From a virus (Duplodnaviria; Caudoviricetes): DNA of 64,000 nt. The translations under genes and the position numbers were made by a program. The stretch is from positions 45,559 through 109,558 of the IMG/VR virus record IMGVR_UViG_2700988794_000001; one strand, given 5' to 3'. Below, one piece after another: positions 5,068 through 61,672 of this stretch. Under the pieces are notes generated by a model. It worked only from the letters and a program-made list of their open reading frames with translations, made no database searches and was not told the origin of the DNA. The stretch's first letter is position 1, and the number at the start of each line of letters is the position of its first letter.

Positions 5068-5122
5068 TGCAACTTGTTGCACCATTTTAGGTGTTGACAA
5101 AGGATCGGTTCCAAGTTAGATT
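5068..5122 (+). promoter_or_regulatory. palindrome + sigma70-type phage promoter
   Basis: TTGACA 5094-AAGGATCGGTTCCAAGT-TAGATT. Confidence 0.85.
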
Positions 5123-5176
5123 GCTTACAGGATCAAAGGAACCGATCCTTCTGGAACCGCAACCGAGGAGTTTTTC

Positions 5177-5590
5177 ATGCCCCGTACAGCCCGCGCCGTC
5201 AACCTCAGCACCGAACTGACGGCTGACGAAAAAGAACAACAGATGAAGGCCAAGCTGGCGAAAATCCGCCAGTACGCCAAGGCCGAGAGCAAGGCCCGCT
5301 CCGACAAGGACAAGCTCTTGCGTCAGCTTGAAAAAGAGATGACGGCGGCTGGAAAGCGCAAGCTCGAAGTCTTTTACGACAACGAGACCATCATCGGCGA
5401 GATCGGCACTGGCGACCCGCGCAACGTCGTGGACACTGCCCTGCTCGCTTCCAAGATCACACATGCTCAGTTCGTGTCCATCGCCACCGTCGCTGGCGGC
5501 GCGGTCAAGGAAGCCTTCGGCACCGGCATCCTCAATCAGGTGCTTGTCGAAAAGGAAGGCGAGCGCAAGCTTCGCGTCGAGGTCGCGTAA
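5177..5590 (+). CDS. hypothetical protein
   Basis: GAGGAG RBS, downstream of a consensus promoter, phage-like codon usage. Confidence 0.75.
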   Translation: MPRTARAVNLSTELTADEKEQQMKAKLAKIRQYAKAESKARSDKDKLLRQLEKEMTAAGKRKLEVFYDNETIIGEIGTGDPRNVVDTALLASKITHAQFVSIATVAGGAVKEAFGTGILNQVLVEKEGERKLRVEVA

Positions 5591-5596
5591 TCCATC

Positions 5597-6100
5597 ATGT
5601 CGAAGGTTGTCACTCATTCGCGGTTTCAGCTTAGTGATATCAACGCTGAAACCCTGAAGGGTATGGGGGTGGAAGTCCTAGCGGATTTCCCCTCCGACGC
5701 CGACCTGGGGCTTACCACCCCGGCCTACGGCGAGGAAGTGCTCGGCACCCTCTCTGTCGAAGAGTTCTCCATCTTTGTCGAGATGAACCATCTTAGCAAG
5801 GAAATCGAGCGCATCACCAAGTCTATCGCTGCCCGCAAAATGCGGGAAGTGGCAGATCGCATGGAAGGCGATGACGACCTTATGTCAGCCGCAGTCATGG
5901 GTGTTGAGAGCGCAGGGAAGAATTTCTTCGACAACGAAGAGGAGGAAGACCACTTCCATACCCTGAACGCCAAGTTCGCCCTTCTCCGGTCTACCCTCTA
6001 TTGGGTTCTTGGGGAACGGTATCACGTCCACTCCTGGCGTTGCGGCATCCGTGCCAACCGCCGGTTCGTCAAAGTCGAGAAGCGCCTACCGAATGGATGA
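5597..6100 (+). CDS. hypothetical protein
   Basis: 167-aa ORF packed between neighbours. Confidence 0.75.
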   Translation: MSKVVTHSRFQLSDINAETLKGMGVEVLADFPSDADLGLTTPAYGEEVLGTLSVEEFSIFVEMNHLSKEIERITKSIAARKMREVADRMEGDDDLMSAAVMGVESAGKNFFDNEEEEDHFHTLNAKFALLRSTLYWVLGERYHVHSWRCGIRANRRFVKVEKRLPNG

Positions 6101-7163
6101 AGCTCCGCTCCGCAGTATTCTCGCAAGGCTTGGGATTAGAAATTTTCCCAAGCCTAACCATGCTGGATGGGGCCACGTGGCTTGCCCGTTCGCCCGCTAC
6201 ATGCCGCAGCACAAGTCCGGCGTTGACCGCTCACAGGGCTTCGCTATCAAGGTTGAGAAGGACGGGCCGTCTGCCTTCAACTGCCCTGTCTGCAAGATGC
6301 ATGGCCGCATCTCCAACCTCGCCATGAACCTTGGCCGGTTCCATGACCGGGACTACACCGAGGTGGCCTACGACGCCGACATGGCCGACCTGGACGCCCT
6401 CAACTACCTGCCCGCATTCGAAGCCGTCGAAGTGGACTTGCCGCCGACGCCCTTGGATGATGCGATCTTTGATGGCATGTTCGAAGAGCCCTGGAAGGTG
6501 CACAACCGCTACCCGCAGGCCGTACGCTTCCTCCAGGCCCGTGGCGTCTCCCAGGCGACCGCCGAGAAGCTCGGCCTCGGCTACGATCCAGAGAAGAAAC
6601 GCATCACCTTCCCGGTGCGCGGCTTCAAGGGGGAGCTTTACGGCTTCTCCGGTCGAACGATCATGCCCGACCACAAACCGAAGGTGCTGGACTATGAGAA
6701 CCTCCCCAAGCGTTGGCTCATTCTTGGCGTCGAGTTCTGGGTTCCCGGTCGCCCCATTGTCATGGTCGAAGGCCTGTTCGCCTACGCTCACTTCCATGAG
6801 ATCGGCGCGGCTGAAAACTACAACGTCGGCGCTCTGCTTGGATCGTATCTCACGCCCGAAAAGGCTGACATCCTTAAGTCCTATGACGAACCCGTGTACT
6901 GGTTCACCGATCCGGACCCGGCTGGCGATGATTGCCTCTTTGGCCGCGTTCTTCCGGGCCAGGATCAACTGCCAGAGGAAGACGACGAGCCGGGCGAGCG
7001 CGAGCTTCTCCGAGACCGCTCCACCTCTGCTCTATATGCGCTGAACGGTCACGTGCCGCAGTACGTCCCGAACTACCCCGTGGACGATCCGGACGATCTG
7101 ACGGTGCAACAGTTTCACTGGATGATGGACAACGCCGAACTTTGGCTTCCCGACGCCAAGTAG
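6093..7163 (+). CDS. DNA primase (zinc finger + TOPRIM)
   Basis: CPFA..H, CPVC zinc finger, RITFPVR..YGFSGR, MVEGLFA, FTDPDPAG, DPDD. Confidence 0.92.
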   Translation: MDEAPLRSILARLGIRNFPKPNHAGWGHVACPFARYMPQHKSGVDRSQGFAIKVEKDGPSAFNCPVCKMHGRISNLAMNLGRFHDRDYTEVAYDADMADLDALNYLPAFEAVEVDLPPTPLDDAIFDGMFEEPWKVHNRYPQAVRFLQARGVSQATAEKLGLGYDPEKKRITFPVRGFKGELYGFSGRTIMPDHKPKVLDYENLPKRWLILGVEFWVPGRPIVMVEGLFAYAHFHEIGAAENYNVGALLGSYLTPEKADILKSYDEPVYWFTDPDPAGDDCLFGRVLPGQDQLPEEDDEPGERELLRDRSTSALYALNGHVPQYVPNYPVDDPDDLTVQQFHWMMDNAELWLPDAK

Positions 7164-7215
7164 GTAGCTTGACATCATTCGCCCTATATGTAACAAAGGA
7201 TCAGGGAGTAGTTAC

Positions 7216-7446
7216 ATGGAAGACCTTTTCGAAAAACTATACATCCATCGTTACGTGGTGGGTAACATAGGTGAGAAGCGCTTATTCCTCGTGCTGCTCT
7301 CTAACACAAGCTTCATGGTCTCACTGGAAAATGACGGCTGCTACGTTGTCGAAGGCATCGAGAAGCCGGTATTCTCCACAGACCTGATGGGCGCAGGGTT
7401 TGACTTCCTCACGGCCCTGCCGTCACTATTATCGTTGAGGAGCTAA
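7216..7446 (+). CDS. hypothetical protein
   Basis: GGGAG RBS, 76 aa. Confidence 0.6.
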   Translation: MEDLFEKLYIHRYVVGNIGEKRLFLVLLSNTSFMVSLENDGCYVVEGIEKPVFSTDLMGAGFDFLTALPSLLSLRS

Positions 7447-7509
7447 GACAGTGGCTCGGAAGAGACCCTATGGCGGCGTCTGATGTACGCCTTTTGGAGA
7501 AGAGAAAAG

Positions 7510-14138: not shown

Positions 14139-14189
14139 TGCAACTTGTTGCAGCGAGGTGTTGACAAAGGATTATTCCTCCCTTAGATT
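14139..14189 (+). promoter_or_regulatory. palindrome + phage promoter
   Basis: TTGACA 14161-AAGGATTATTCCTCCCT-TAGATT. Confidence 0.85.
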
Positions 14190-15592: not shown

Positions 15593-15649
15593 TCAGGCGG
15601 GGGAGGGGAGGTGGTTAGCCTCCATTCTCCTCTCCCCTCCCATACATAG

Positions 15650-15670
15650 GCCCGCTTCGGCGGGCTTTTT
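15650..15670 (+). terminator. intrinsic terminator
   Basis: GCCCGC-TTCG-GCGGGC-TTTTT. Confidence 0.85.
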
Positions 15671-15673: not shown

Positions 15674-15724
15674 TGCAACTTGTTGCACTTAGCTGTTGCC
15701 AAAGGAACGGTTCTACGTTAGATT
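15674..15724 (+). promoter_or_regulatory. palindrome + phage promoter
   Basis: TTGCCA 15696-AAGGAACGGTTCTACGT-TAGATT. Confidence 0.85.
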
Positions 15725-15752
15725 ATAAACATCGAAACGGAGAACCACCGCA

Positions 15753-16343: not shown

Positions 16344-16461
16344 GCCCTTCCTCACGGTGAAACTTGTTGCACTCGAATTTTGTTGCCTACATATGTTGAC
16401 CTGTATATAGTGGTACGCTGGGAACGGCACCCACCACATACAGACATCATTGGAGCAATGG

Positions 16462-20432: not shown

Positions 20433-20461
20433 TTGACAAAGGATTAGGGGGTTGTTAGATT
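20433..20461 (+). promoter_or_regulatory. phage promoter
   Basis: TTGACA-AAGGATTAGGGGGTTGT-TAGATT. Confidence 0.8.
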
Positions 20462-20466
20462 GTAGC

Positions 20467-21038
20467 ATGACAAATAATCCCCTATCCGCTCGCAAGTTTG
20501 GTCATTGGCATTGGGAGAAGCCCGACTTCGATGACCTGAAAATCCAACGGCTGGTCGAAGAGCACGTGCTCTTGGGCGCTCGCAATGGCCTAAGTGGTCA
20601 TGGCCTATCCCCGGCCCCTACAACGGCCACACAGGGCTTGAGAGGGTCGAGGGATGGAAGCGGGTATGGTTGGCTGTCCGCATGGGCCTGTTGCCTTCTC
20701 CGGCGCAGTGCTCCATCTGCTTCACCCGCACCGGCAGCTTCCAGTACCACAACGAAGACTACTCGCGCCCGCTCCAGGCTAAGCCGGTCTGCCAGTCCTG
20801 TCACAAGATCGTCCATATCCGTTTCAAGAACCCTGACAGTTGGTTGCAACTTGTTGCACGGCATCGCGTCGAGGGTTATCGGCAGTGGTTCGAAGACGCC
20901 CGGATGGCAGAGCGTAACACGGTCGATGGCAGGCACTTGCTCCAGATCACCACGAGGGTTGCCACCAAAGGCATGATGGCTCGCTCGCCTCGCACGGTTC
21001 GCCTGGAAGTAAGGCAAAGAACCCGCAAGACCGACTAG
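20467..21038 (+). CDS. zinc-binding HNH-like protein, probably leaderless (frameshift ~20570)
   Basis: PYNG..CSIC..HNEDYS..CQSCH..H; ATG lies 6 nt after the -10 box. Confidence 0.55.
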
Positions 21039-21099: not shown

Positions 21100-21737
21100 A
21101 TGAAGATCACGCTAGAACAGCGTGCGCTCGACAGTCTACAGCCATACGAGCGCAACTCCAAGAACCACGGCGACGGCGACATCGAAGCCATCGCCTCCTC
21201 CATCACCCGCTTCGGCTTCAACGATCCCATCGGCATCACGCCGGATGGCGTCATCGTTGAGGGCCATGGCCGCTACGAAGCCGCCCACCGCCTGGGCTCG
21301 ACACCGTGCCGGTCATCGTGATCGAAGGCGCAACAGAGCGCCAGATCGACCTCTACCGCATCGCTCACAACAAGATCGCCCTGTCCACCGGCTTCGACTT
21401 CGAAGTCTTGGTGGATACGCTGCGCGAGGTGTCAGAGCATGGCGAGGTGCAGATCGCCGACATGGGCTTCTCCATGGAAGCCTACGACAACCTCTGCCAG
21501 ATGTTCGCCCCCAACGAGGTGCGCGCCCGGCAGAACGGTTCGCGGCCTCAGTCGCACGAATACGATATCATCTTCGACAACAAGGAGCAGAAGGATACCT
21601 TCTCGAAGTTCCTCAAGCGGATGAAGGCTAAGCATCCCGACCTGGAAGAGGGCAGCGCCTTCCTCCTGTTCGCCAAGGAGCACATCGGAGACATCAGTGT
21701 CGGTGCCGCCCAGCAGGAGGAACAGCACAATGGCTAA
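21100..21737 (+). CDS. ParB/Srx-fold protein (frameshift ~21295)
   Basis: PYERNSKNH, SITRFGFNDPI, EGHGR, YRIAHNK. Confidence 0.85.
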
Positions 21738-24316: not shown

Positions 24317-24345
24317 TTGACAAAGGATTGGTTCTAAGTTATTCC
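24317..24345 (+). promoter_or_regulatory. phage promoter
   Basis: TTGACA-AAGGATTGGTTCTAAGT-TATTCC. Confidence 0.75.
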
Positions 24346-24373
24346 TATACGTGTAGAATAACGGAGAACCACC

Positions 24374-25123: not shown

Positions 25124-26368
25124 ATGCTTAATCCTTTTCGCCGGGCAGTGGACCTCTCTGATGTTCCCTCGCCCGGCAACTTCCTGACACGAGCCTTCAG
25201 CCGTCTCTTCGGCAAGGGCCGCAAGCAGGCGCACCAAGCCGAGCTTACCAGGGCTATCAATGGTGGGCTCGCCCGACAAGCCGAGCTTTCCAGGGCGCTC
25301 GCTTCCGGCGGTCCTGCCAACCATGTGCCCGCTGGCACACCTATACCAGTTGTGACCGTGCAGGTAAGCGGCGACGTGCAGGCCGCTGACACAATGGGGC
25401 GCGTAGCCTCAGCCATTAGGGATCAGTTCGCCATCAACAACGCTGCCGTCGCCCGGCGACGAAGCAGAGATGCCGTCGCTAGGGCTATCCACATTGATAC
25501 GACCGTAAAGGAGCAACCCATGCCAGAGAAGCAGGAGACGAAGCGTAAGGTTTGGCTGGGTGAGGATAGACCATCCGTCATTGCCCAGCGTGAGGCCAAG
25601 GAGAGGGCAGAGCGGCTCGCCAAGGAGGCAGCAGAGCGCCGGGCACGCATCGAAGCGGAGGAGGCTCAGCGGAAGGCTATGGCCCTCGTGGAAGCCGAGC
25701 GTGCGCTGGCAGAGCGACGGGCACAGTTGGAGGCGAGCCGTCAGCAGGGCTATGCACCTGCCAATACGTCGGTGAGTGCCGAGGCATCCGTCCTCCGGAT
25801 CGATGAGCTTCTGACCGTCAAGGCTAACCGTGTCCTGCCCGTGCACTACCGCGAAACAATCGAGGGCTACTACGATGCCTTGAGAGGCGACAACGTCTAT
25901 CAGACCACGGGCGTGCTGTCGCCACCTCCGGCCAACTACAGCTACTATCTCTTGACAAAGGACACCGTAGGGCTACCCGTCTCCGCTGATCGCCCGGCTC
26001 GCTTTTCTGCATCGATCATCATGCCGGAAGTCAACAAGGGCGGTCAGGTCAACATCCAGTCCAGGTCCATGTACGTCCACCATGCCTTCGTCATGCCTAT
26101 CGAGTTGACGCTCGCCTTGCGTGGAAAGCTACCCAAGGAAATGGCTGACCGCTTGGGCGCTGTCGTCGTCATGGAAGACGAAGGCCGTGGCGATCTCCGG
26201 CAGTACCGCGTGGACCACGAGATATTGAACGATGTCTTGAGCGGTGGCGGTCTCTACGATTGGGGCAAGTCGATCAATCGGGACTTCAAGATGTTTGGCG
26301 CTCGCGCCGCCTTCGGCTCAGCGGAGACCGCGTTTCGTGGCGCGTCCACCAGCATTGTGTACCGATAA
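25124..26368 (+). CDS. hypothetical coiled-coil protein
   Basis: 414-aa ORF, GGGAG RBS, EAER-rich helix. Confidence 0.7.
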   Translation: MLNPFRRAVDLSDVPSPGNFLTRAFSRLFGKGRKQAHQAELTRAINGGLARQAELSRALASGGPANHVPAGTPIPVVTVQVSGDVQAADTMGRVASAIRDQFAINNAAVARRRSRDAVARAIHIDTTVKEQPMPEKQETKRKVWLGEDRPSVIAQREAKERAERLAKEAAERRARIEAEEAQRKAMALVEAERALAERRAQLEASRQQGYAPANTSVSAEASVLRIDELLTVKANRVLPVHYRETIEGYYDALRGDNVYQTTGVLSPPPANYSYYLLTKDTVGLPVSADRPARFSASIIMPEVNKGGQVNIQSRSMYVHHAFVMPIELTLALRGKLPKEMADRLGAVVVMEDEGRGDLRQYRVDHEILNDVLSGGGLYDWGKSINRDFKMFGARAAFGSAETAFRGASTSIVYR

Positions 26369-26374: not shown

Positions 26375-26425
26375 TGCAACATGTTGCATTTAGGTGTTGC
26401 CAAAGGATCGGTTCTACGTTAGGTT
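26375..26425 (+). promoter_or_regulatory. palindrome + phage promoter
   Basis: TTGCCA 26397-AAGGATCGGTTCTACGT-TAGGTT. Confidence 0.85.
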
Positions 26426-26463
26426 ATAAGCATCGAAGCAAACAAGCCAACCGGAGAACCACC

Positions 26464-26856
26464 ATGGCACGCAAGATCAAAGTTACCGCCTCTGAACTCC
26501 AGCGCTCGAAGCAGAGCCTGAACTACGGCCAGATCGAAATGGCCAAGCTGTTCACCTCTGAAGACGCGGTCACCAAGGTTCACGCAGACGGCACGGTCGA
26601 ACGTCTGAACCGCGCGACCATGGAGCAGATCGGCTACTTCCTCAAGGGCAAGCGCGCCGTTGACGGTGTAGAGATCATGGAAGAACTGAACAAGGATTGC
26701 ATCGCGCTCCTGGTACAGGGCGGCTACGTCAAGGCCGAGAAGCGTTGCAAGAGCGCAAAGCATGACATGTACTGGATCACCGCCAAGGCGGCTGAGCGTT
26801 TCAACCTGAAGCCGGTCACCTCGTTCGGCCTGCCCTTCAAATTCCTGGAGGCGTAA
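26464..26856 (+). CDS. hypothetical protein
   Basis: Promoter cassette plus GGAGAACCACCATG leader. Confidence 0.75.
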   Translation: MARKIKVTASELQRSKQSLNYGQIEMAKLFTSEDAVTKVHADGTVERLNRATMEQIGYFLKGKRAVDGVEIMEELNKDCIALLVQGGYVKAEKRCKSAKHDMYWITAKAAERFNLKPVTSFGLPFKFLEA

Positions 26857-27231: not shown

Positions 27232-27263
27232 CCCTTGTCAAAGGATCGTTCCTTCGGTATCTT
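27213..27263 (+). promoter_or_regulatory. palindrome + phage promoter
   Basis: TTGTCA 27235-AAGGATCGTTCCTTCGG-TATCTT. Confidence 0.85.
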
Positions 27264-27298
27264 ATAAACATCGAAGGAACGAACCAAGGACTAAGACA

Positions 27299-27733: not shown

Positions 27734-27785
27734 TGCAACTTGTTGCAACATAAGTGTTGCCAAAGGATCGGTTTGTGGTTAGATT
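27734..27785 (+). promoter_or_regulatory. palindrome + phage promoter
   Basis: TTGCCA 27757-AAGGATCGGTTTGTGGT-TAGATT. Confidence 0.85.
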
Positions 27786-28017: not shown

Positions 28018-28419
28018 TCAACCACGGCAACTCAGGAGAACCACCATGGCCGTCGTCAAGTACAACGCAGAGACCAACAAGCATGACGTGATCATCTTCG
28101 GCGCGGACACCGTGTCGTTCGATCACGAAGACGAGGCGGAAGGCTTCGCAGAGTTCGTCAATGGAGGCGACAATGACTGAGAACGAATACCTGATCGCCC
28201 GGTCCCGCAAGTACACCGTGGTGGAGGTTCTCCTCTTCCTGGGGATCGCGGTCACCCTGTTCTTCCTCGGCTGGCAGAAGGTCGCCATCTGTTTTCTGAT
28301 TTGGGCCTGCTTGTCCCTGATCACCCACCACAGACGCGTGAAGCGTTACTACTACATCGACTAACCCACAGGGGAGGGCTTCGCGGCTCTCCTCTGCAAC
28401 TTGTTGCATGGAGGCAACC

Positions 28420-29708: not shown

Positions 29709-29759
29709 TGCAACATGTTGCACTTAGGCCTTGCCAAAGGATCGGTTCGTTGTTAATCT
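29709..29759 (+). promoter_or_regulatory. palindrome + phage promoter
   Basis: TTGCCA 29731-AAGGATCGGTTCGTTGT-TAATCT. Confidence 0.85.
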
Positions 29760-29777
29760 CTTATTACTGAAACGGAG

Positions 29778-29990
29778 ATGACGACCATGAGCCACTGGAC
29801 AGAGAAGATGAACGAGGCGGAAGCAGCCGCCAGTGCCGCATGGGAACGCATGCAACAGGCCCGCAAGGATGGCAACCGCCGCGCCGAGAACAAGGCATGG
29901 CGGGAGCACTCCAAGCACAAGGATGCCGCCAGCCGCTTCCGCGCCTTCGCCAACCCCATGGAGGTTAGCGCCTCCGGTTTCGCATCGTAA
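29778..29990 (+). CDS. hypothetical protein
   Basis: Downstream of a promoter cassette. Confidence 0.65.
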   Translation: MTTMSHWTEKMNEAEAAASAAWERMQQARKDGNRRAENKAWREHSKHKDAASRFRAFANPMEVSASGFAS

Positions 29991-30001
29991 GGAGAACCAC
30001 C

Positions 30002-30232
30002 ATGGCAGAGAAGCACAGCAACCTGATCGACCGCCGCGCCACACAGGAAGCCAAGGTAGGCATCTGCCAGTTGGCAGGCAAGCAGTGGGTCGAACTCCTT
30101 GACCCGGCAACGAAGGCACCTTACCGCTTCGCAGACAAGAAGACCTGCATGAAGACGGTCACCCGCCTCGTGCTCAAGGGCACGCACAACATCATGCCTT
30201 TCAACGCATCGACCGGCGAACTGCTCGGCTAA
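30002..30232 (+). CDS. hypothetical protein
   Basis: GGAGAACCACCATG leader. Confidence 0.7.
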   Translation: MAEKHSNLIDRRATQEAKVGICQLAGKQWVELLDPATKAPYRFADKKTCMKTVTRLVLKGTHNIMPFNASTGELLG

Positions 30233-30528: not shown

Positions 30529-30580
30529 TGCAACTTGTTGCAATATATCCGTTGACAAAGGATCGGTTCGTTGTTAAGTT
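30529..30580 (+). promoter_or_regulatory. palindrome + phage promoter
   Basis: TTGACA 30552-AAGGATCGGTTCGTTGT-TAAGTT. Confidence 0.85.
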
Positions 30581-34175: not shown

Positions 34176-34227
34176 TGCAACCCGTTGCAACTTAGGTGTT
34201 GACAAAGGATCGTTCCCAAGTTAGATT
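34176..34227 (+). promoter_or_regulatory. palindrome + phage promoter
   Basis: TTGACA 34199-AAGGATCGTTCCCAAGT-TAGATT. Confidence 0.85.
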
Positions 34228-36087: not shown

Positions 36088-36129
36088 TTGACAAAGGATC
36101 GGTTCCAAGTTACTTTGCAACATGTTTCA
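36088..36129 (+). promoter_or_regulatory. phage promoter with a downstream palindrome variant
   Basis: TTGACA-AAGGATCGGTTCCAAGT-TACTTT, then TGCAACATGTTTCA. Confidence 0.8.
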
Positions 36130-39797: not shown

Positions 39798-39849
39798 TGC
39801 AACTTGTTGCAAGGGAATGCTTGACAAAGGATCGTTCCCTTGTTACTCT
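39798..39849 (+). promoter_or_regulatory. palindrome + phage promoter
   Basis: TTGACA 39821-AAGGATCGTTCCCTTGT-TACTCT. Confidence 0.85.
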
Positions 39850-41408: not shown

Positions 41409-41560
41409 CCCGTCCGGGCTAGCCCGAAAGAACCCTATCAAATGTCAGTGATCAGGGTTACAAGTGTCGCCGTGGGTGTTGGGGTTTCAGTTGCGCCCAC
41501 GGAACGACCTGTTAGTGAGCGAGTAACAGGAGCCCTTCTATTCACCCTTTCGAAGGGTTC
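41409..41560. ncRNA. candidate structured non-coding RNA
   Basis: ORF-free gap containing five consecutive stem-loops. Confidence 0.35.
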
Positions 41561-41617
41561 CTGTTGCAACCTGTTGCATGCCGCGCTACGGTAGATTTAG
41601 CAACAGGAGAGGGCTCT

Positions 41618-43478: not shown

Positions 43479-43533
43479 TGCAACACGTTGCACCATCTTA
43501 GTCCTTGACAAAGGATTGTTCCCCTGTTACTGA
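43479..43533 (+). promoter_or_regulatory. palindrome + phage promoter
   Basis: TTGACA 43505-AAGGATTGTTCCCCTGT-TACTGA. Confidence 0.75.
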
Positions 43534-43559
43534 TCTAGCGTCTTTAACAGGGGATTTTC

Positions 43560-45131: not shown

Positions 45132-45200
45132 CAGCGTGCAACATGTTGCAAAACCCTCATTGTGTGCTATGGTCCTATAGCTACACATGAGGGTTTTTCT

Positions 45201-45737
45201 ATGCGCATGATTTATGGGGTTGCATACGCATTCTGGCTACTGTTCCTCTCCAGTGCAACAGTTGCACCAGCGCAGACGTTCACCACGCCGCCATTCGGCT
45301 ACACGCTGTTCTGCGCCAAGTACAAAACCAACTGCGCCAGCAGCGGCCCGGCCTCCATCGCGCAGACTGCCAAGCTCATGGCCGACCTGAAGCTAATCAA
45401 CGCCCGCGTAAACGCCGCGATCACCCCGACGCCCGATGCATACGAAAGCTGGGATTTATACCCGAAGCTCGGCGACTGCGATGACTTCGTCATGACGAAG
45501 CGAGATGTCCTGATCAAGATGGGCTACCCTGTGTCGGCGTTCCGGCTCTACGTGGTCGAGACCGGCTCCCGCGAGCTACACCTCGTCTTGGTTGTATCCA
45601 CCGACAAGGGCGATCTTGTTCTCGACAACCTGAAGCAGACAATCGTGCCTTTGCAGGCCTCCGGCTACACCCTGGTCAAGCACAGCACCGAAAATCCTAA
45701 CGTCTGGGTTGTCGATAAAGGCTATACCAGCACTTGA
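45201..45737 (+). CDS. transglutaminase-like cysteine proteinase (BTLCP/C93) with signal peptide
   Basis: PPFGY..FC, VNAAI, GDCDDFVMTKR, HLVLVV, VLDNL. Confidence 0.88.
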   Translation: MRMIYGVAYAFWLLFLSSATVAPAQTFTTPPFGYTLFCAKYKTNCASSGPASIAQTAKLMADLKLINARVNAAITPTPDAYESWDLYPKLGDCDDFVMTKRDVLIKMGYPVSAFRLYVVETGSRELHLVLVVSTDKGDLVLDNLKQTIVPLQASGYTLVKHSTENPNVWVVDKGYTST

Positions 45738-45762
45738 CAAAGGATTGGTTCTAAGTTACTCT
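45734..45762 (+). promoter_or_regulatory. phage promoter
   Basis: TTGACA-AAGGATTGGTTCTAAGT-TACTCT. Confidence 0.8.
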
Positions 45763-45787
45763 CCTAAGTGTTCAATAGGAGAGAACT

Positions 45788-46168
45788 ATGACCATCAACG
45801 AAGACAGTGCAGCCCAGCGTGACGCCCGTCGCCGCAAAACGCTCGACATCATTGCCAGCAACATCCGGTTCCAGGGATACACCCAGGCCCTGAATTCCGC
45901 CAGGGAAAAGCATGGTATCGAGGCCTACTGGCGCGAGGTTGACGACTTTGCCGATCAGCTTGATGCCGAAGAGGCGGCGCGCAAGGCGCAGGAGGAAGAG
46001 GATGCCCGCTTTGCCGCCCTCTCCGACACCGAAGCGGTCAAGGAACTCAGCAAGGCCCGGCAGGCATTCGCCTCCACCATGGTCCGTGTCCGGGATAAGG
46101 GCCTTCGCGTCACCCTGACGGTGACGGACAACCGCCTCGGCTTCGAAGTCGTGAGGCCGATCTCTTGA
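45788..46168 (+). CDS. hypothetical protein
   Basis: Promoter cassette plus AGGAG. Confidence 0.7.
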   Translation: MTINEDSAAQRDARRRKTLDIIASNIRFQGYTQALNSAREKHGIEAYWREVDDFADQLDAEEAARKAQEEEDARFAALSDTEAVKELSKARQAFASTMVRVRDKGLRVTLTVTDNRLGFEVVRPIS

Positions 46169-46722: not shown

Positions 46723-49700
46723 TGCACTCGTGAGCAAATGGTGGATGGCGCGCTCGCTGTCCACCGCAGAGCGTGCGACCTTGACGCCCGAGCAGAAAGC
46801 CGAGCGCCGGGCGCAGGCAGTCCACTGGCGTCTCGAAGATGCCGAGAAGAAGCTGACAGTCAGCCGCCGCAAGCGCATGACACGCTGGCTGAACCAGTGG
46901 TTCCGTGGCGAAGTCATGCGCGAACTACTCTATAACGAGGAAACCGGCGGCTTCTACAGCCTGAAGGCCTTCATCCGCAGCGAATTCATCGACGCCGTCC
47001 GGGTGGCACTGCGCGGCACCGATCAGGCGTCCATGCTGGAGAGGATCATCCGTGGCGAGGTCGGCAAGGTTCTCAGAGGCAACGCCTACGGCACCGACGC
47101 CGATGGGCAAGCGAAAATGGAAGAATACATCCAGAAGCTTGTCAAGGAAGAAGTCAAAAAGCAGGTGATGAGCAGCCTTAGCATCGACATCGCCGTAACG
47201 GGCCGCGTCTTCTCGCCTCCGGCAGGGCAGCGGCGCGTTGATCTGGGAGCACCTGAATAATGGCAATGAAGCATATCAGCGACAAGCAGGTGTGCGAGGC
47301 CTACCTCGCCGCCCGGCTCGACAGCGAGCGTTTTCCTTACGACTACCTCATGGAGGTGACCGGCCAGCCGTTCAAGGTCTGCTACCGCTGCATGGAACGC
47401 GCCTGTGATCGCGGCATGATCGAGTACGGCGTCTCGCTGCGCACCGGCTGGCTAACCGAGTACGGCTTCCGGGTGGCGGAGATCGAGCCCTTCAAATGGT
47501 GCGAGGGGAAGGAATTCGTGCCGATCCCTTACAAGCCGCCCAACTTCAACCCCGCCCTGGAGCGGATGGCGATGGACCTCCTCAACGGTATTGTTGACGA
47601 CATTGAGGAAATCCTCGTCAAAGGACACAACGGAGAGAAACGTGACTGAAATTCCCTACCCGCACGCCAGCACGGAACCGCTGGAGACCATCAGGTCCAA
47701 CGAATGCGAAAGCCAGCACGGCTCGCTCTGCACCCGGCGCTTCCAAGCGTTCTGGAACGAGATCGTCCGGCTCCGCGATAAGGTATCCGAACTGGAAGGC
47801 GCAAATCCTGCCAAGGAAGCGTTGCAACTGTTGCAGCCCGCAACGCCAGAGCAGCGCGCCAACATCGCGCCGCCCGAGAAGCCGAACGTCGTGGCCAGCT
47901 ACTATCACGAGTTCGTCATGACGCCGGACACCATCGACATCGAAGACCAGGGCATGGCGATGATCGTGCACGCCGACGCCGATACGCCGGACAGCGATCC
48001 GAACACCATGGCCGTCCGGTTCCACTCCTGGGATGAAACCAAGGAGCATGAGCATCTCCGCTCGTTCGCTGGCAAGTTCGTCACCATCACCGTCGAGGCG
48101 TTCAATGTCTAATAGCGTCCTTGCGCCGTGGATCGGCGAGCTTGGCCTTCAGCAACAGTCCGTTCTCATCCTCGCCTTGCGCGGGCCGGACGGCGACAAG
48201 AAGCATACGCCCTTCAAGCACCTCCTCCGGCCTTACCGAGGCACGATCCTGAAGGCGGCGAAGTTCAACCGCATGCTCCTCATTGACGAGGAGGCCGACA
48301 GCTTCATGACCATGGAGAACTTCGGCGACCCGGTGCGTTGGAACTACGTGGTCAAGGACTTCCTGGAAAACGAGGCAGACGGCTCGGTCCTGCACCACTA
48401 TACCCACTTCATGCACGCCGCGCAGATCATCGGCTACAAGCATCCCGAGGTGGACTACCGCGACCGCTGGCAATGGCTCTACATCCAGTTTTGCAACAGG
48501 TTGCACGTCAACGTGGAGACCGAAGAGCAGATGGATCGCCGCCTCTGCGACTGGAACAAAGTGTTCTGGACCTCTTGACAAAGGATCGGTTCTAAGTTAA
48601 ATTCTTAGTGTCTGAAAGGGGATAACATGACTGAAGAGACCAAAAACCGCTGGGAAGGTATCGTCAAGATACAGTTGCCGCTCGCTGGCAGTGTTTCCGA
48701 TGCGCTGATCTACGACAAGACCAAGCACGTTCACGTGTTTCTGCCGGTCGGCGACGTGGAAGAGATCGCGAAGGGCCGTGTCAAGTTCTTCACGAAGGCG
48801 CGCATCGACAGCGATGGCTTCCTTCATATCGAAGAAGATGCGGAGGAGCAAACGTGGTGAGGGATGTCCGTCTCGATGACACGAGACCAAACGACCGTCT
48901 AGGGACGGACAAATCTCCGATCCCGGAGGGCGGTTTGCCGAAAGGCGAAGCCTCGCACTCGGTTCGCGGTTACTTCGTAAAGGAAGTTGGCAAAGCCGTG
49001 ATCTTCGACGTGCGTGACATGCAGGTGGGGAACCATAAGAACATTATGCTCCCCACCTCGCAGGTTCATATCAAGCAACTCGGCGGCATGTCGGTAGACA
49101 TCTATATGCGCGGGTGGCTTTACAAGGAGAAGTTCCGATGACCGAAGAGAAAGAGAAGACGGGCTATCTCGCCTTCCACAGGGCAAGGCCTTCCCGCTCT
49201 CGGCAGCGACCACCAAGGACGCCTATGATCAGGCGGCAAAGCACTTCGGCGTGCCCAAGCGCACTGCCCACAGGCATATCCACCTCGAAGAAGCGCCGGT
49301 CGGCCAGGGGAGTAACCCCTAATGTGGTATAAGCTGGGAGATGACCACATTCCCGTCGAGACCACGATGGAAGAGGCAAACGCGGACGGCTTCGGCACCA
49401 CTAAGGGCGTCGTGCGGCAGGACGTTCACCTGAGAGGCGCGCTCTCCACAGTCTTCCTTTATCTCGACCACCGTTTCGGCGACGGCCCTCCGATGCTTTT
49501 CGAGACCATGTGGTTCCCATACGATGACAACGACGGGTCCGAAGTGCTGGATCGCTACCCGACGTGGGACGAAGCTCTTGCCGGGCACATGCGCCACGCT
49601 GAAGAGCTTGGCATCGCCGCCGAGATGCAGCAGCGCGATCTGAAGGCAGAGGATGCCAAGGCCGCAGAGAAGAGGAGGCGCAGACATGTCAATCTCGATG

Positions 49701-51947: not shown

Positions 51948-52026
51948 ATCGGTGCAACCTGTTGCAATACAGCCTCGATATGCTACAAAGGTCTCTGATA
52001 CCCACACGTGTTGGAGACCTTTTGTC

Positions 52027-52660: not shown

Positions 52661-55600
52661 ATGGCCAAGAAGAGACTTTCACAGCTTCCCGTGGCGACGG
52701 CACCGCAGATTGCGGAAGCATCGATCCTCCTGCTGACCGCGAACAACGAAGAGGTGCAGGCACCGATCACCCGCGCGCTCGGCGGCACCCGTGCAATCCT
52801 GACCCTGGACCAGACGCAGAGCGTCGATTTCCGCCTGATCAGCCCGAACAACGTGGTCGAAGACATCACGGCAACGGTCGTGGTCAACAAGGGACTGACC
52901 GGCCAGATCACCAAGACGGCCAAGACCGACGCCAATGGCGCTGGCACCATCGAGTTCCCCACGCTTGCGCGCGGTCAGACCTACACGGTTGACCTGTCTT
53001 TCTCCACGTTCCTTGCTGTCAAGCGCACCGATTGGTTCATCGCACTGCTGGCCGCTGCAACTGTTGCACCGTCCGCCACGTCCACCGGCCTCGTCGGCGA
53101 CCTGATCACCATCGACAAGGGCACCTGGAGCGGCACCCCAACGCAGTACCTGTTCCGCTATCTGCGCGGCGCATACGTCATCCCAGGCGCGAATGCCGAC
53201 ACCTACCGTCTGACCGCTGACGACGCCGACGACATCATCACGCCGCAGGTTATGGCGGTAAATGCGGGCGGCAACAGCACCTGGGTAAGCTGCAACACCA
53301 TCGGCCCGGTCGCGAACAAGGCCACAACGTTGGTCCGCGCTCCTGTCATCGCTGGCAACGGCGACCTCGGCGGTCACTTCACCATCACCGATCCCGGCGA
53401 AGCAAGCAATTTTGCTGTCCCGACCACGGATGAATGGGAGGCGAACGCCGCACTCATTCCTTCCGACAAGCTGACGGCCACGCGCTACCTCAACTACGTG
53501 CCTTCCCTGTCGCCGGGCGTGCCTTCGTCCATGGCGGCTGCTCCCGCCGCTGACAACCACAATTTTAACCTTAACGTCAGCACCTACACCGGCACGAATG
53601 ATATGTCGTTGCCGATTGCTGGTAGCGCAACGGAAAACGACTATATCTACAGCACCACCACCGAGCCCGGCGTCAACGGAGGTAACTCCGGCCCGCAGAC
53701 CTGGGATATCACCCTGAAGCACGGCCCGACCGCTACCTCCATTCGCGAACAGATGTTCATCGCACGCGTGGATAGCACTGGCGCTGTCATCGGCGCTGAA
53801 ATCCAGTGCGCTCGCGTCGGCGCGGCGGCAGGATCGGAGTATGCCGAGTTCCAGCCCTTGCAGAACGGCGTCTACACCTTCCGTGTCGTCAATGACTTTG
53901 GCAAGTGGAATGCTGGCGACCGTGTTCGTTGGCGCATGCGTCACAGGAATACGAGCGGCTCCTCTGGTAACGTCCGCATCACGGTTACCAGCGGCCCGTC
54001 GTTTGCTACCCTTCCGATTGGCCCGAGAAAGACGCTGACGAACAGCCGTATCTTCTTCACGTCCACGACGGCGCTGGCAGGCAAGACGCTCCGCCTGAAG
54101 CGTACCTTCTCGAATGGTGCCTACACGATCACGGCCTACAGCAACGAAATCGTCCTGGACGCTGCCGTGGCTCAGACCGTAGCGCCGGTCAACACGCTTG
54201 CGCCGTCGCTCTACACGACAACCGAGTTTCGTCAGAACACCAACGTCTACGTCGATGTCGGCCAGTGGGATAATCAGCCACGGATATCGCCTTGCAGTGG
54301 ATGCGCGACGGCGTAGACCTCGCAGGCGAGATCGGCACCTACCATGCCATCGCGGCGGCTGACATCGGTCACGAACTGACGTGCCGTGTCACCCCCTCCA
54401 ACGCCATCGGCTCGACGCCCGTGGTAACCGCGCCCATCGTCGCCCTGCCGCCGCGCGTTTACTTCGACATCGCCGCAGGTAACGACGCCAGTGACGGCCA
54501 GTCCACCGCGACGGCGAAACAGACCTCTGCCACCTCCGGCTCGCTCACCTCCGGTTCGTCGGCAGCGTTCAAGGCCAATGGTGTATGGGCGAACCGCCTC
54601 CTGATCGGCAGCAACATCCGCTACGAGAGCTACGACGTGGGCGCGAAGCCTCAGTTCGGCGTGGCTGGCGTGGCCTTCACCATCGACAGTTACACCGACG
54701 ATGGCTCGCTCGGAAGGTCTGGCGTCACTCTTGACGGTCTCTCCATTATCGCCGACCAGCGTGGTCTTCAGACACGCCAGGGCGCTAGCTGGACCGTCCA
54801 GAACTGCCTGTTCGATGATATCGGCTTCCGCCCGCCGAGTGGTCAGCAGGAAAACACTCAGGGCATGATGTTCTACAAGACGAACCACCTGAAGATACTC
54901 AACAACTTCATGGATCGCGTGTACAACGACGACCTGTATATCGACACCTGCAACAACGTCCTGATCAATGGCAACACGATCATGCCGTGCTTCGGCGCGG
55001 AAGGCGACAACATCCAGACCCGTGCCGACCGTACCGATCCTCACCAGATCGGCATCGAGATCGGTCACAACTACCTCGACATGGGTTCGCGCAAGACGGG
55101 CTCGGGCAAGGGCTGCATCGTCACCAACATGCAGAGCTACGCCTACATCCATGACAACATCCTGATCGGCAATAACTTCGGACACGGCACCGACGAAGGT
55201 CATCACCATGTCTGCGCCCGTAACCGCATGCGCCATGCGCGCAAGAACTCTTACTCTTGGCTGATCGGCATCGGCGGTTACGACAACCAGCCGTATTCGT
55301 CCGACCACCAGATGTACGATAACTACCTGGAAGACGCGAACCGTGGCCACGCCTACACCGGCATCGGCGTCAGCAACTACACCGGGCCGCTCTCGGCTCG
55401 CGCTGACATGCGCTGCTACGACGAAACCATCGTCAACTGCACGGTCGGCCTCCGTATCGACCGCCCGACCTCCGGTATCTTCCGTGGTTGGGTCTTCCAC
55501 AACGTCGGCACCCCGATCAACCGTGTGAACACGACCTACGTCAACGAAGGCACGATCCACGACTTCATCAGTGGCGATCACTGGATTTACAAGGGCGCTA

Positions 55601-55992
55601 TCAGCCGTCCGCCGGAAGTCATCACCCGCGCGACCATCACTGGCACCCGTCAGGTCGGCCAAGTGCTCACGGGCGATGCTGCCGTCTTCGATACGGCGGA
55701 AGTCCTCGCTGCCTTCCCCGGCGCGGTCATCACCCGTTCCTTCCAGTGGCGTCGGCATGCTCGCATGCCGTTCCCCTACACCGGCTACTACCTGCCGTTC
55801 TACGGCCATGGCTGTGACTGGATCGAAGGTGCCACGGCAGACAGCTACCAGATCGCCGCAGAAGACGTTGGTTGCCTCGTCTCCCGCGTCGAGCGTATCC
55901 ACCTCACCTTCACGGAAGGCGGCGTCGAGAAGGTCGTTACCGCACTGGCATACGACGGCAGCTATGTCGGATCGGCAGAGATCATCGCCTAA
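52661..55992 (+). CDS. large fibre-like protein with Ig-like repeats and a right-handed beta-helix (frameshift ~54285)
   Basis: MAKKRLSQLP anchor, GTWSGTPT.Y..YLR Ig-like units, YFDIAAGNDASDG motif, beta-helix repeats. Confidence 0.75.
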
Positions 55993-56080
55993 TAAATGGA
56001 TTTGCAGCAGGGGCCTCGTGCAACCTGTTGCAAATCTCTTCTTTATCGAGTAGCGTCACCGACAAATGTAGGAGAAAGAT

Positions 56081-58302: not shown

Positions 58303-58313
58303 CACGTCACCGC

Positions 58314-58342
58314 TTGACAAAGGATTGGTTCTAGGTTACTTT
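58314..58342 (+). promoter_or_regulatory. phage promoter
   Basis: TTGACA-AAGGATTGGTTCTAGGT-TACTTT. Confidence 0.8.
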
Positions 58343-58612: not shown

Positions 58613-59046
58613 TGCTCGACCCTCTGACCATTGACCCTAAAGAACTCGGCTTCAGTTGGGTGGACGAGACCGGCAAGTACCGTTGCTGGATGACGGAACG
58701 GATGAACAGGTATGCCGAGCGCTACTTGAAGCCCATCGTTATCGAGGTGGATCACGACTACGCCAAGCACATATTCCGGGCATGCGGCATCGAACAGCAC
58801 AGGCTCCTCCGGATCACGCCCCAGGTGATCGCGCAGCGCCCCGTCCTCTACGTCGAGTTGGGCGACGGCAGTCATAAGCTCGTGGATGGCAACCACCGCT
58901 ACCTGAAGGCCTCGCTCCTGGGGTGGAAGGACGTTCCGGCGTACCTCTTCAAGAAGAAGCTGGCGGACGACTTCGAACTCGACATCCCGCCGCACATGAA
59001 CGAGAAGTGCAAGCAACACATCCCGTCCTTCTCCGGTATCCGCTAA
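58612..59046 (+). CDS. ParB/Srx N-terminal-like protein
   Basis: PVLYV..HKLVDGNHRY.KA..LG..VPAY. Confidence 0.75.
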   Translation: MLDPLTIDPKELGFSWVDETGKYRCWMTERMNRYAERYLKPIVIEVDHDYAKHIFRACGIEQHRLLRITPQVIAQRPVLYVELGDGSHKLVDGNHRYLKASLLGWKDVPAYLFKKKLADDFELDIPPHMNEKCKQHIPSFSGIR

Positions 59047-59948: not shown

Positions 59949-59974
59949 AGGGCGCTCTTCGGAGCGCCCTTTTT
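59949..59974 (+). terminator. intrinsic terminator
   Basis: AGGGCGCTC-TTCG-GAGCGCCCT-TTTT. Confidence 0.9.
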
Positions 59975-59976
59975 GT

Positions 59977-60026
59977 TGCAACTGTTGCAATGAGTTGTTG
60001 ACAAAGGATCGTGGTCACGTTACTTT
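59977..60026 (+). promoter_or_regulatory. 13-bp palindrome variant + phage promoter
   Basis: TTGACA 59998-AAGGATCGTGGTCACGT-TACTTT. Confidence 0.8.
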
Positions 60027-60056
60027 CCCAGGGTCTAGGTCAGAAGGAGAACCGAC

Positions 60057-60377
60057 GTGTTTGATGATTTCCTGAATAATCTGCAATCCTCGCTGTCCAT
60101 CGGCAAGATGGATGAGTTCTACGATTTCCATATCGCCAAGCTCCGCAACATGCAGGAAGGGCAGCGCCGCGCGCATATCTCCTCCATGAAGCATTCGCAG
60201 AAGCACGACTACAAGGCCGACCTCCGGCTCGTTATCACCGAAGATGACGACCTCCATCCCGGCCTTGATCCCTGGAAGCTGGAAAGCTACAACACGCCCG
60301 GCATTGCCGAAGCCATCCAGGCCGCAACGCAGATCGTTATCCGGCGCGGCGGCGTCGAACAGAAGGTCAAGGGATAA
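60057..60377 (+). CDS. hypothetical protein
   Basis: GGAGAACC leader. Confidence 0.7.
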   Translation: MFDDFLNNLQSSLSIGKMDEFYDFHIAKLRNMQEGQRRAHISSMKHSQKHDYKADLRLVITEDDDLHPGLDPWKLESYNTPGIAEAIQAATQIVIRRGGVEQKVKG

Positions 60378-60380
60378 GAC

Positions 60381-61118
60381 ATGAGAACCTACGCCATCGG
60401 AGACATCCACGGATGCCTCGACATGCTCGAAGAGGCCTTGGCCGACATCGCCTATGAAAGCAAAGGGGTGCCCTTCCGGATCGTCTTCCTTGGCGATTAC
60501 ATCGACCGTGGCCCGAATAACCGTGGCGTCCTGGAGCGCCTCATGGCCGGGCCACGGGAGGGGGAGGGCGACGAATGGGTCTGCCTGATGGGCAACCACG
60601 AGCACCTGATGCTTGGAGCCATGTCCGGTGAGGCGGCGTCCCTGAAGGGGTGGCTCTTGAACGGCGGCGACAAGACGCTGGACGAATACAAGACCGTCTA
60701 CAATACCGTGACGGGCCGCGACCAGATCGACGCCCAGGCTATGAAGCCGATGCTCGAATGGGTGCGGCAACTGCCCGTCCTTTATGACGACGGCGTGCGC
60801 TTCTTCGTCCACGCGATGATTGACCCGCGCTACCCTCTTGATCCGAGTGACGAGAGGCAGATGGAAGCGCTCCTGTGGCTTCATGTGCGGAAGAACCACC
60901 AGGAGAAACCATTCCAGCAAATCTATGGTCGGCAGGTGGTGCACGGGCATAGCCCGCAGCGCAGCGGACAAGTGTTCGCTACCGAGCACCGCGTCAACCT
61001 CGATACCGGCGCTGTCTTCGGCGGCGCTTTAACCTATGGGAGATGGGATGACGGGGAAGTCATGCCCTCCCTCAAACAGATCAGGGTAACAGATGAGCAA
61101 TACGCCGAACGCGCCTAA
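60381..61118 (+). CDS. Ser/Thr protein phosphatase-like metallophosphoesterase
   Basis: GDIHG, GDYIDRG, GNHE, FVHA, HGHS, DTGA. Confidence 0.92.
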   Translation: MRTYAIGDIHGCLDMLEEALADIAYESKGVPFRIVFLGDYIDRGPNNRGVLERLMAGPREGEGDEWVCLMGNHEHLMLGAMSGEAASLKGWLLNGGDKTLDEYKTVYNTVTGRDQIDAQAMKPMLEWVRQLPVLYDDGVRFFVHAMIDPRYPLDPSDERQMEALLWLHVRKNHQEKPFQQIYGRQVVHGHSPQRSGQVFATEHRVNLDTGAVFGGALTYGRWDDGEVMPSLKQIRVTDEQYAERA

Positions 61119-61398
61119 GAAGAGACTTGGCCGGAAGAAGATCGAAGAACTGCCCTCCGCCCCAGAGACAGTCATCCCGATGCAGCCGCCTGTCTTCGCG
61201 CAGGCCTACCAGCACCGGACATACGTGTTCTTCTATTATGAGACCGACGCGGGCGACACGGGCTTCAACAATACCATCGTCAACCTCTCCGGCATCCATA
61301 CAGTCCAGGAACTGGAAGCAGTGATCGGCGCGATCAAGCAGCAGCACCCAGACTATAAGGACATCCAGATCAGCAACCACTTCCCGGTCTACGCCTGA
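61093..61398 (+). CDS. hypothetical protein
   Basis: 101 aa, overlaps the phosphatase end. Confidence 0.65.
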   Translation: MSNTPNAPKKRLGRKKIEELPSAPETVIPMQPPVFAQAYQHRTYVFFYYETDAGDTGFNNTIVNLSGIHTVQELEAVIGAIKQQHPDYKDIQISNHFPVYA

Positions 61399-61619
61399 TG
61401 CAACTTGTTGCAACAAAAAGTTCTTGACCTTTTTGCCACCTGCTATATGTTCGTAATCAGTCCTCGACGGAACGGCTTGCCAAGTACGCGGGAGGGTAGA
61501 CAGGGGAAGGGCAGCTATAGATCGGCGACGATTTGGCTCCCATCGCCTCAAAACCTAAAGAGCCTCACCGAAGCCCCCCTCAAAAGGATAAGCTCAGTGG
61601 GGCTTTTTCATATCAGGTG

Positions 61620-61648
61620 TTGACAAAGGATCGGTTCTAGGTTAGATT
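61620..61648 (+). promoter_or_regulatory. phage promoter
   Basis: TTGACA-AAGGATCGGTTCTAGGT-TAGATT. Confidence 0.85.
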
Positions 61649-61672
61649 GTTGATAGTCTAATGGAGAGCCAG

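Follow-up and report, generated by a model that had tools for sequence, protein, structure and literature searches.

Locus-specific inverted repeats across the sigma-70-type promoter cassettes of a Caudoviricetes phage and their possible role in gating translation of read-through RNA

The stretch of DNA considered here, referred to as the window, is the right-hand 64 kb (positions 45559–109558) of a 109,558-bp phage record (Caudoviricetes; IMGVR_UViG_2700988794_000001). Unless marked as genome positions, coordinates are those of the window. Genes lie almost all on the + strand, and a Pfam scan of the 107 window proteins identified a DnaB-like helicase, a family-A DNA polymerase, a primase, RecA, RuvC, a ParB-like protein and a PAPS-reductase-like protein, together with many small proteins lacking a Pfam match. 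Distributed among these genes is a promoter cassette that occurs 21 times in the window, 27 times in the whole genome and 26 times in a relative, Rhizobium phage RHph_I4 (MN988552.1), in every case on the + strand. This report concerns inverted repeats that span a subset of these promoters and differ from copy to copy. The interpretation favored here, to which we assign about even chances, is that they act as locus-specific translational gates resembling those of the T4 genes e and soc.

The repeated cassette and the hairpins that span it

The cassette has the form TTG(A/C)CA-AAGGATCGGTTC..GT-TAGATT, followed by a short leader, a Shine–Dalgarno (SD) sequence and a start codon. Its −35 hexamer, TTG(A/C)CA, is succeeded by a near-invariant AAAGGAT(C/T)G, a variable 3′ half of the spacer, and GT with the −10 hexamer TAGATT. 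Downstream are a leader of ~20–25 nt, an SD that often lies in the context GGAGAACCACC, and the start codon. The repetition is far beyond expectation, with 15 occurrences of TTGACA-N16-18-TANNNT (0.46 expected) and 18 occurrences of the 18-mer TTGACAAAGGATCGGTTC at ≤3 mismatches (0.01 expected). A looser regular expression matches 22 sites, 21 of which have TA at the −10 position and a 17-nt spacer. The remaining match, at 25952–25980, shares the first 13 cassette bases (TTGACAAAGGAC..) and has no −10, lies inside an open reading frame (25124–26368), and appears from its sequence to be a decoy or decayed copy. The figure of 21 promoters given in an earlier reading of this DNA (the original prediction) is therefore correct. 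Judged by its sequence, the repeated element is a promoter cassette for host RNA polymerase of the sigma-70 type. Its conserved spacer AAGGATCGG is unusual for such promoters and may be a protein-binding site. The ribosome-site context GGAGAACC has 20 copies in the genome, four of them at ribosome sites without a cassette promoter, and the context GGAGAACCACCATG at 28035–28048 and 29991–30004 likewise serves two genes with no cassette promoter upstream. A limited literature search turned up only a passing mention of RHph_I4 and no account of its promoters or of the cassette, and an Rfam 15 scan of the 64-kb window gave no match at the gathering score.

The original prediction listed eight pairs of complementary arms across promoters of the window. 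All eight exist where it placed them and with the complementarity it gave, and their sequences do differ from locus to locus. Promoter-to-leader folds were compared with 200 dinucleotide shuffles per locus. Seven of the eight listed stretches went far beyond their shuffles (z −3.06 to −6.16; 0–2 of 200 equally good), whereas the eighth, at 36088, did no better than its shuffles (z −0.83, 41 of 200; duplex 75 of 1000). Among the 13 promoters that were not listed, those at 26397 and 45734 are structured, those at 29731 and 31769 are borderline, and nine have z values of −1.13 to +1.34. For the window as a whole, nine of 21 promoters are structured (z ≤ −2.86), two are borderline and ten are shuffle-like.

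Other measures give a similar account. In separate folds of −30..+45 for all 27 genome copies, z averaged −1.07 (t-test P 0.002) and was below −2 for eight copies. A duplex measure, in which 29 nt of promoter are paired with the next 50 nt, beats 1000 shuffles (P < 0.05) at 9 of 27 copies here, six of them at q < 0.05, and at 9 of 26 copies in RHph_I4, three at q < 0.05. Within the window, the duplex energy of promoters with their own loci is −16.25, compared with −12.72 ± 0.56 across loci, and none of 20,000 permutations was as low. The genome contains 17 perfect inverted repeats of ≥10 bp, where shuffles contain ~5, and three of the 17 fall in promoter windows that make up ~0.9% of the genome (expected 0.15; Poisson P 5e-4). 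In absolute terms the duplex energies do not stand out in this GC-rich genome (background mean −17.1, promoters −15.2), so only composition-matched nulls are informative.

The repeats that exceed chance, at 5100, 27246, 43520, 20441, 24329, 61633 and 45754, are idiosyncratic and locus-specific, each in its own register, and loops of promoter-spanning stems measure 6–27 nt. In all nine structured cassettes the position 6–8 nt past the −10, where the consensus places the start of transcription, lies either within the loop or at the base that opens the 3′ arm. The 3′ arm itself lies on the SD or the first codons in seven of the nine; that this would be so in most cases had been predicted, as had the two exceptions, at 5138 and 27272. 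A further proposal, that G-T pairs favor the top strand, holds at 20433, at 61620 and at genome position 3944 (outside the window) but not overall, the top strand being better at 14 promoters and the bottom at 13. The three G-U-dependent stems lose 4.8–9.2 kcal/mol on the other strand, where C-A mismatches take the place of those pairs.

Predicted masking of ribosome sites on read-through RNA

For each cassette, a long RNA beginning 10 nt before the −35 was compared with a short RNA beginning at the predicted +1. The extra opening cost is the SD-to-AUG opening energy (kcal/mol) of the promoter-including RNA minus that of the RNA from the predicted +1. Across both phages, 17 of 53 cassettes have a cost above 4 kcal/mol, and in the window 9 of 21 do, namely those at 15696, 24317, 26397, 29731, 31769, 36088, 43505, 45734 and 61620. 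The effect is specific to the native combination: a cassette's own promoter is predicted to mask its own SD by 8.0 kcal/mol, compared with 6.57 ± 0.37 kcal/mol for swapped promoters (4 of 20,000 permutations reach the observed value). The corresponding values in RHph_I4 are 7.4 and 6.15 ± 0.35 kcal/mol (8 of 20,000). The distribution of swap ranks is bimodal, with ~10 cassettes ranking first to fourth and many near the bottom. Costs above 6 kcal/mol occur at 7 of 23 promoter-proximal genes versus 4 of 100 internal genes (Fisher P 7e-4), and on the short RNA promoter-proximal SDs are predicted to be more open than internal ones (4.0 versus 6.0 kcal/mol, P 0.002).

Several loci illustrate the arrangement. 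At the cassette spanning 15696–15746, the arms 15709–15719 and 15736–15746 match at 10 of 11 positions, and the 3′ arm, AACGGAGAACC, is the SD of the gene starting at 15753 (z −3.51; extra opening cost +6.9). The cassette at 24317–24371 has an atypical −10, TATTCC; its arms, 24329–24344 and 24356–24371, pair at 14 of 16 positions, with the 3′ arm covering the SD GGAG ahead of the start codon at 24374 (z −3.57; +11.6). At 43505–43554, the arms 43520–43529 and 43545–43554 are perfectly complementary (10/10), the 3′ arm TAACAGGGGA again being the SD, with the start codon at 43560 (z −3.30; +11.7). The cassette at 61620–61670 places its −10 within the 5′ arm (61633–61648), which forms 11 Watson–Crick and three G-U pairs out of 16 with 61655–61670 around a 6-nt loop; the 3′ arm covers the SD GGAGAG before the start codon at 61673 (z −3.80; +10.7), and the top strand is better by 9.2 kcal/mol.

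Two structured cassettes were absent from the original list. At 26397–26469, GGTTCT (26410–26415) pairs with AGAACC (26455–26460) of the SD context, and TGCCA of the −35 (26398–26402) pairs with TGGCA at the start codon (26465–26469), giving a z of −3.28 and an extra cost of +9.6. At 45734–45794, the −10 and discriminator (45754–45766) pair with TAGGAGAGAACT (45776–45787), which extends from the SD up to the ATG at 45788, and an outer helix joins 45746–45750 to 45790–45794 (z −2.86; +12.9). Masking is also predicted at the two borderline cassettes. In that at 29731–29795 (z −1.93, 7 of 200 shuffles), the spacer GGTTCGTTGTTA pairs with the SD-to-AUG region at an extra cost of +10.1, and in that at 31769–31832 (z −1.61, 10 of 200), the spacer GGTTTCTC pairs with GGAGAACC at +9.5. 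The shuffle-like cassette at 36088–36141, with arms 36099–36106 and 36134–36141 (8/8, loop 27 nt), still carries a cost of +8.3 on the long RNA.

Other stems stand in a different relation to the SD. In the cassette at 5094–5150 (−35 at 5094–5099, −10 at 5117–5122), the arms 5100–5112 and 5138–5150 form 13 of 13 Watson–Crick pairs around a 25-nt loop. The leader contains the 3′ arm, at a distance of 14 nt upstream from the SD of the gene starting at 5177, and no effect on SD opening is predicted (z −3.83; +0.29). Likewise, the arms 27246–27256 and 27272–27282 of the cassette at 27235–27282 are fully complementary (11/11, loop 15 nt), with the 3′ arm stopping 4 nt short of an SD-like AAGGA that precedes the start codon at 27299; the fold is strong (z −6.16) and the predicted SD effect small (+1.2). 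At 20433–20487, the arms 20441–20456 and 20473–20487 form 15 pairs, including G-U pairs, with one 1-nt bulge (z −3.06). The top strand is better there by 4.8 kcal/mol, and the 3′ arm covers codons 3–7. The first ATG (20467) is only 5 nt past the −10 TAGATT and lies in the loop, a spacing that is the same in RHph_I4, so the mRNA may be leaderless. The annotated start of the RHph_I4 orthologue is a TTG within the promoter spacer, and several first genes behind cassettes, this one among them, probably have wrongly annotated starts in that genome.

These arrangements suggest a mechanism. At about 4 in 10 copies, the leader or SD of the downstream gene is complementary to part of the promoter, namely the discriminator, the −10 or the variable 3′ half of the spacer. 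RNA initiated at the cassette's own promoter would have no 5′ arm, because the predicted start site sits between the arms, and its ribosome site would be open. RNA arriving from an upstream promoter would carry both arms, with SD and AUG buried (9 of 21 window promoters). Such read-through is to be expected with all genes on one strand and few strong terminators; terminator-like sites are in fact no commoner than in shuffles. If the RNA folds in the cell as modeled, the pairing would probably make the ribosome site of the downstream gene inaccessible on read-through RNA at roughly 4 in 10 copies. Translation of masked genes would then track their own promoter and not upstream transcription, and the untranslated read-through RNA might be exposed to Rho or to decay.

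The nine remaining cassettes of the window lack a significant promoter-spanning hairpin. They are at 14161–14189 (z +1.34), 30552–30580 (z −0.19), 34199–34227 (z −0.39), 39821–39849 (z −0.17), 48575–48603 (z +0.14), 62891–62919 (z −0.12), 59998–60026 (z +1.09; a terminator-like hairpin lies upstream at 59949–59970), 58314–58342 (z −1.13; long leader, start codon at 58418) and 27757–27785, where a local hairpin over the −10 falls short of the SD (z −1.09; opening cost −2.2). Away from the cassettes, perfect inverted repeats of 9–11 bp bury the SDs of genes starting at 21730, 41618, 45201 and 52027 (repeats at 21660–21722, 41559–41608, 45150–45197 and 51987–52022, respectively). RHph_I4 retains two of them (21660 and 51987), with compensatory or wobble changes, and does not retain the one at 45150; for the 41559 region BLAST gave no match in that phage.

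A second repeated element accompanies many of the cassettes. The 14-bp palindrome TGCAAC-NN-GTTGCA has 37 window sites at ≤1 mismatch, where 0.18 are expected, and 47 exact copies in the genome; examples are at 5068–5081, 15674–15687, 45137–45150, 51953–51966 and 56019–56032. It lies 22–26 nt upstream of the −35 in about half of the cassettes (13 palindrome copies), and the remaining copies are in other intergenic regions or within genes. A DNA-binding regulator probably recognizes it, and the TTGCAA end of the copies at 45137 and 51953 could serve as the −35 of a second promoter type. No association between masking and an upstream palindrome was seen by eye, the palindrome being present in 6 of 10 masked and 9 of 17 unmasked cassettes. 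Two sigma-70-like sites that are not cassettes, at 61424–61451 (TTGACC-16-TATGTT) and 16383–16411 (TTGCCT-17-TATAGT), are both directly downstream of palindrome copies, so the phage probably has further host-type promoters.

A few other features of the window bear on the quality of the record. The DNA polymerase I gene (2239–5066) is split by a frame change near 3081–3108, and a pectin-lyase-fold tail gene (52661–55992) by another near 54280; each is a single frame in RHph_I4. Genuine frameshifts could account for this, or else indel errors in the record. A few such errors are possible, and perfect stems would be unaffected by them. ARAGORN also calls an 83-nt tRNA-Pro (GGG) on the − strand at 58775–58857, inside a + strand open reading frame, which is probably a false call.

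Conservation in RHph_I4 and the explanations it allows

In the collections searched, RHph_I4 is the only close relative, with 75.7% identity across a 6.5-kb test stretch. Its DNA polymerase protein is 92% identical, and that of the next relatives ≤50%. An 18-mer scan of viral contigs for further cassette-bearing relatives gave no match, and a 17-mer scan of metagenome and genome contigs gave 52 and 40 single matches, respectively, in unrelated organisms, which were judged to be chance. The two best other viral contigs (L036 and L037) showed no consensus sigma-70 motif of the cassette kind in ~20 kb. All orthologue comparisons rest on this one usable relative. Of the 27 cassettes, 21 precede orthologous genes in RHph_I4, and three (24317, 43505 and 58314) precede genes with no detectable similarity to those behind the RHph_I4 cassettes L026, L035_1501 and L012.

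The conservation picture is mixed, with some stems kept or improved and others lost. Three stems, at 27235, 45734 and 61620, persist in RHph_I4: the arms at 27235 are identical (L028_1501; z −5.31), those at 45734 are the same (L010_484; z −2.91), and at 61620 two mismatches are G-U pairs in the relative (L014; z −4.55). The stem at 20433 is retained with one G-U replaced by G-C (L025; z −1.68), and the orthologue of 31769 has a far stronger stem (L031; z −4.51). At 43505, 8 bp persist in the position-matched L035_1501 despite a different gene downstream, and L026, at the position of 24317, has a different gene together with different and weaker arms. At genome position 10920, the orthologues differ by one double compensatory and two wobble-compatible changes, and at genome position 3944 the RHph_I4 orthologue masks the same SD through a different 5′ arm, located in the discriminator. 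Counted over promoter-spanning pairs, 214 are unchanged between the phages. Predicted masking is shared by five orthologue pairs, confined to this phage in two and to RHph_I4 in none, and absent from both members in 14 (Spearman 0.68).

A number of results weigh against the idea that these stems gate translation. On the side of conservation, the 13/13 stem at 5094 is not kept in its orthologue L022 (z −1.77; about 6 bp left), and the counterparts of 15696 (L024; z −0.35) and 26397 (L028_655; z −1.68, extra cost +1.5) are weaker. Agreement between orthologues in the masked state is not separable from conservation of the sequence as such. Of the pairs changed on one side, 40 still pair and 77 do not; of those changed on both sides, five still pair and eight do not. 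By our estimate, neutral change would produce roughly these counts. Arms from the same phage do not pair significantly better than chimeras made across the two species (Wilcoxon P 0.17). On the side of the mechanism, start sites and transcripts are predicted ones, and four structured cassettes lie behind terminator-like hairpins (15648–15667 before 15696 and 61590–61605 before 61620, together with perfect inverted repeats and T-runs upstream of 24317 and of genome position 3944), so read-through should be lower there. No overall strand asymmetry exists. The two longest and most perfect stems, at 5100 and 27246, leave the SD uncovered, and the mechanism does not account for them. Nor does it explain why more than half of the cassettes lack a mask: 12 of 21 window promoters have no predicted masking, and ten have no excess structure, though many of these carry the SD context GGAGAACC. 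A genome-wide, T4-like insulation of read-through RNA, as originally proposed, thus has to be narrowed to the 9 of 21 promoters that fit, each in a locus-specific way.

Covariation of the arms, as originally proposed, is not borne out in the strict sense. In an alignment of 36 cassettes there is no column covariation, and RNAalifold returned no consensus structure. A helix common to many copies, GGTTCT/AGAACC plus GTT/AAC (the spacer GGTTCT..GTT with AAC.GGAGAACC), pairs in 71.3% of cells, and shuffling the partners pairs just as well (71.7 ± 0.7%; 397 of 500 shuffles as high), while slid registers reach ≤68%. Because partner shuffling makes no difference, this helix reflects two conserved motifs that are coincidentally complementary. 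A rival explanation takes the stems for functionless by-products; we regard it as possible but doubtful. The spacer GGTTCT..GTT would simply happen to complement the favored ribosome-site context AAC.GGAGAACC, and a few perfect repeats would come from templated (strand-switch) mutation or recombination between cassettes, drifting in and out. Column composition fully accounts for the common pairing, and the chance of 9/11 complementarity between two motifs in these windows is, by our own arithmetic, ~0.1. The context GGAGAACC stands at sites without a cassette promoter in 4 of its 20 copies (for example, at 28035 and 29991), the substitutions described above look neutral, and the chimeras gave no significant difference. 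Hairpins have been gained and lost between the two phages, and the changes in 5138–5150 relative to RHph_I4, a clustered patch plus a 3-nt indel beside a pre-existing GGATC/GATCC repeat, resemble the trace of a single templated event. What coincidence accommodates poorly is the set of at least six independent, locus-specific arm pairs, each improbable by itself (0–2 of 200 and 0–35 of 1000 shuffles), and the ~20-fold enrichment of perfect repeats at promoters. Seven of nine 3′ arms end on the SD or first codons and not elsewhere in the leader, internal genes show strong upstream-dependent masking less often, and RHph_I4, at ~75% genome identity, retains several of the stems or has better versions of them. 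If the stems are by-products after all, they carry a caution, namely that two complementary conserved motifs and a few templated repeats can mimic covariation.

Action on read-through RNA of another sort is an improbable alternative, in which the stems would be attenuators or terminators like those of PeSL (promoter-early stem-loop) cassettes, or processing sites for RNase III. Several folds, those at 24317, 61620 and 26397, form helices of 16–20 bp interrupted by internal loops, a shape that RNase III substrates have. The stems at 5100 and 27246, being off the SD, need some other role, and the three position-matched cassettes before different genes recall PeSL-mediated shuffling. Stem-loops of PeSLs are reported to terminate upstream transcription in the available part of PMC2839356; the arms here are locus-specific, unlike the G-run/C-run stems described there. 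As intrinsic terminators, the promoter-spanning stems had to be rejected, since none was called terminator-like on the + strand, loops are 6–27 nt, and only 43545–43554 is followed by a T-run (TTTT). Action at the DNA level is very improbable, be it through promoters that form a cruciform or hairpin or through an operator whose inverted repeat binds a dimeric protein. Six of nine stems are pure Watson–Crick and equally good on both strands, and the unusual conserved spacer AAGGATCGG may bind protein. Long loops, however, disfavor cruciform extrusion, and those here run to 27 nt; arms that differ per locus provide no single shared protein site; and three stems need G-U pairs that make the other strand 4.8–9.2 kcal/mol worse. 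An N4-type promoter is a short hairpin with a small loop, read by a phage-encoded RNA polymerase. The loop sizes do not agree with an N4 virion RNA polymerase-type promoter, and no phage RNA polymerase was found in the Pfam scan of window proteins or among the 168 annotated RHph_I4 features. The DNA hairpin or cruciform promoters raised in the original prediction consequently receive no support.

Translational gating at a subset of cassettes, the reading preferred here, also has a more far-reaching form, to which we would give only tentative credence: promoter and ribosome site may have evolved as one insulated unit, with selection keeping a read-through-specific mask on the SD at a large fraction of promoters and remaining indifferent to the bases that form it. 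A mask whose 5′ arm wanders between spacer, −10 and discriminator, as at genome position 3944, would be missed by ordinary covariation tests, and it might act together with Rho on untranslated read-through RNA. If this were so, the phage would use the T4 e/soc switch at many loci, in a form built on sigma-70 promoters, and could run its genes independently. If the masking is real, a one-strand phage with few terminators would keep its promoter outputs separate at the level of translation, a gene-specific curiosity of T4 would become a reusable cassette design, and a simple sequence rule would be available for synthetic insulated promoter and ribosome-site parts.

Comparison with known systems

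PeSLs appear to be the closest described cassette type. In the available parts of PMC2839356 and PMC4122927, they are described from T4-type phages (RB49/phi1, PST and nt-1) as many intergenic sigma-70-like promoters with a stem-loop, SD and start codon, in which the stem-loop may sit between or over the −35 and −10 boxes and may include G-T pairs. They are also linked there to gene replacement between close relatives. The cassettes of this phage share with the PeSLs of Arbiol et al. (2010) the numerous intergenic sigma-70-like copies ending in an SD and start codon, and three position-matched cassettes precede unrelated genes in the two phages, so the cassette may mark a boundary of gene replacement, as proposed for PeSLs. 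The stems are another matter. Those of PeSLs are compact, built on a shared motif (G-run, loop, C-run) and reported to be terminators. In this phage only ~40% of cassettes have a stem; its sequence is particular to the locus, it surrounds the −10 and +1, in most cases it reaches onto the SD, and T-runs are lacking.

A second comparison is with the hairpins that mask SDs in translational coupling. The same phage appears to bury internal SDs in this manner, at 21660–21722, 45150–45197 and 51987–52022. In such hairpins, the 5′ arm lies in the upstream gene or in intergenic RNA and is always within the transcript, so they cannot distinguish between transcripts as the cassette stems might.

The nearest parallel in mechanism is with T4. 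There, in genes e, soc, 49 and I-TevI, a hairpin on long transcripts sequesters the SD, the AUG or both, and RNA from the local promoter, which has no 5′ strand, is translated; the original prediction cited this precedent accurately, as far as the available part of PMC3014915 goes. The geometry matches at 9 of 21 promoters here, with the helix on the SD or start codon by prediction. The two systems differ in that the T4 promoters are late ones, recognized by a phage sigma factor, and serve to delay specific genes, whereas here a single sigma-70-type cassette is repeated and the 5′ arm falls within its spacer, −10 or discriminator. As predicted here, the arrangement also recurs at many genes of unknown function. 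Taken as the folds suggest, the finding is a multi-copy variant of a known T4 device and not a genome-wide rule.

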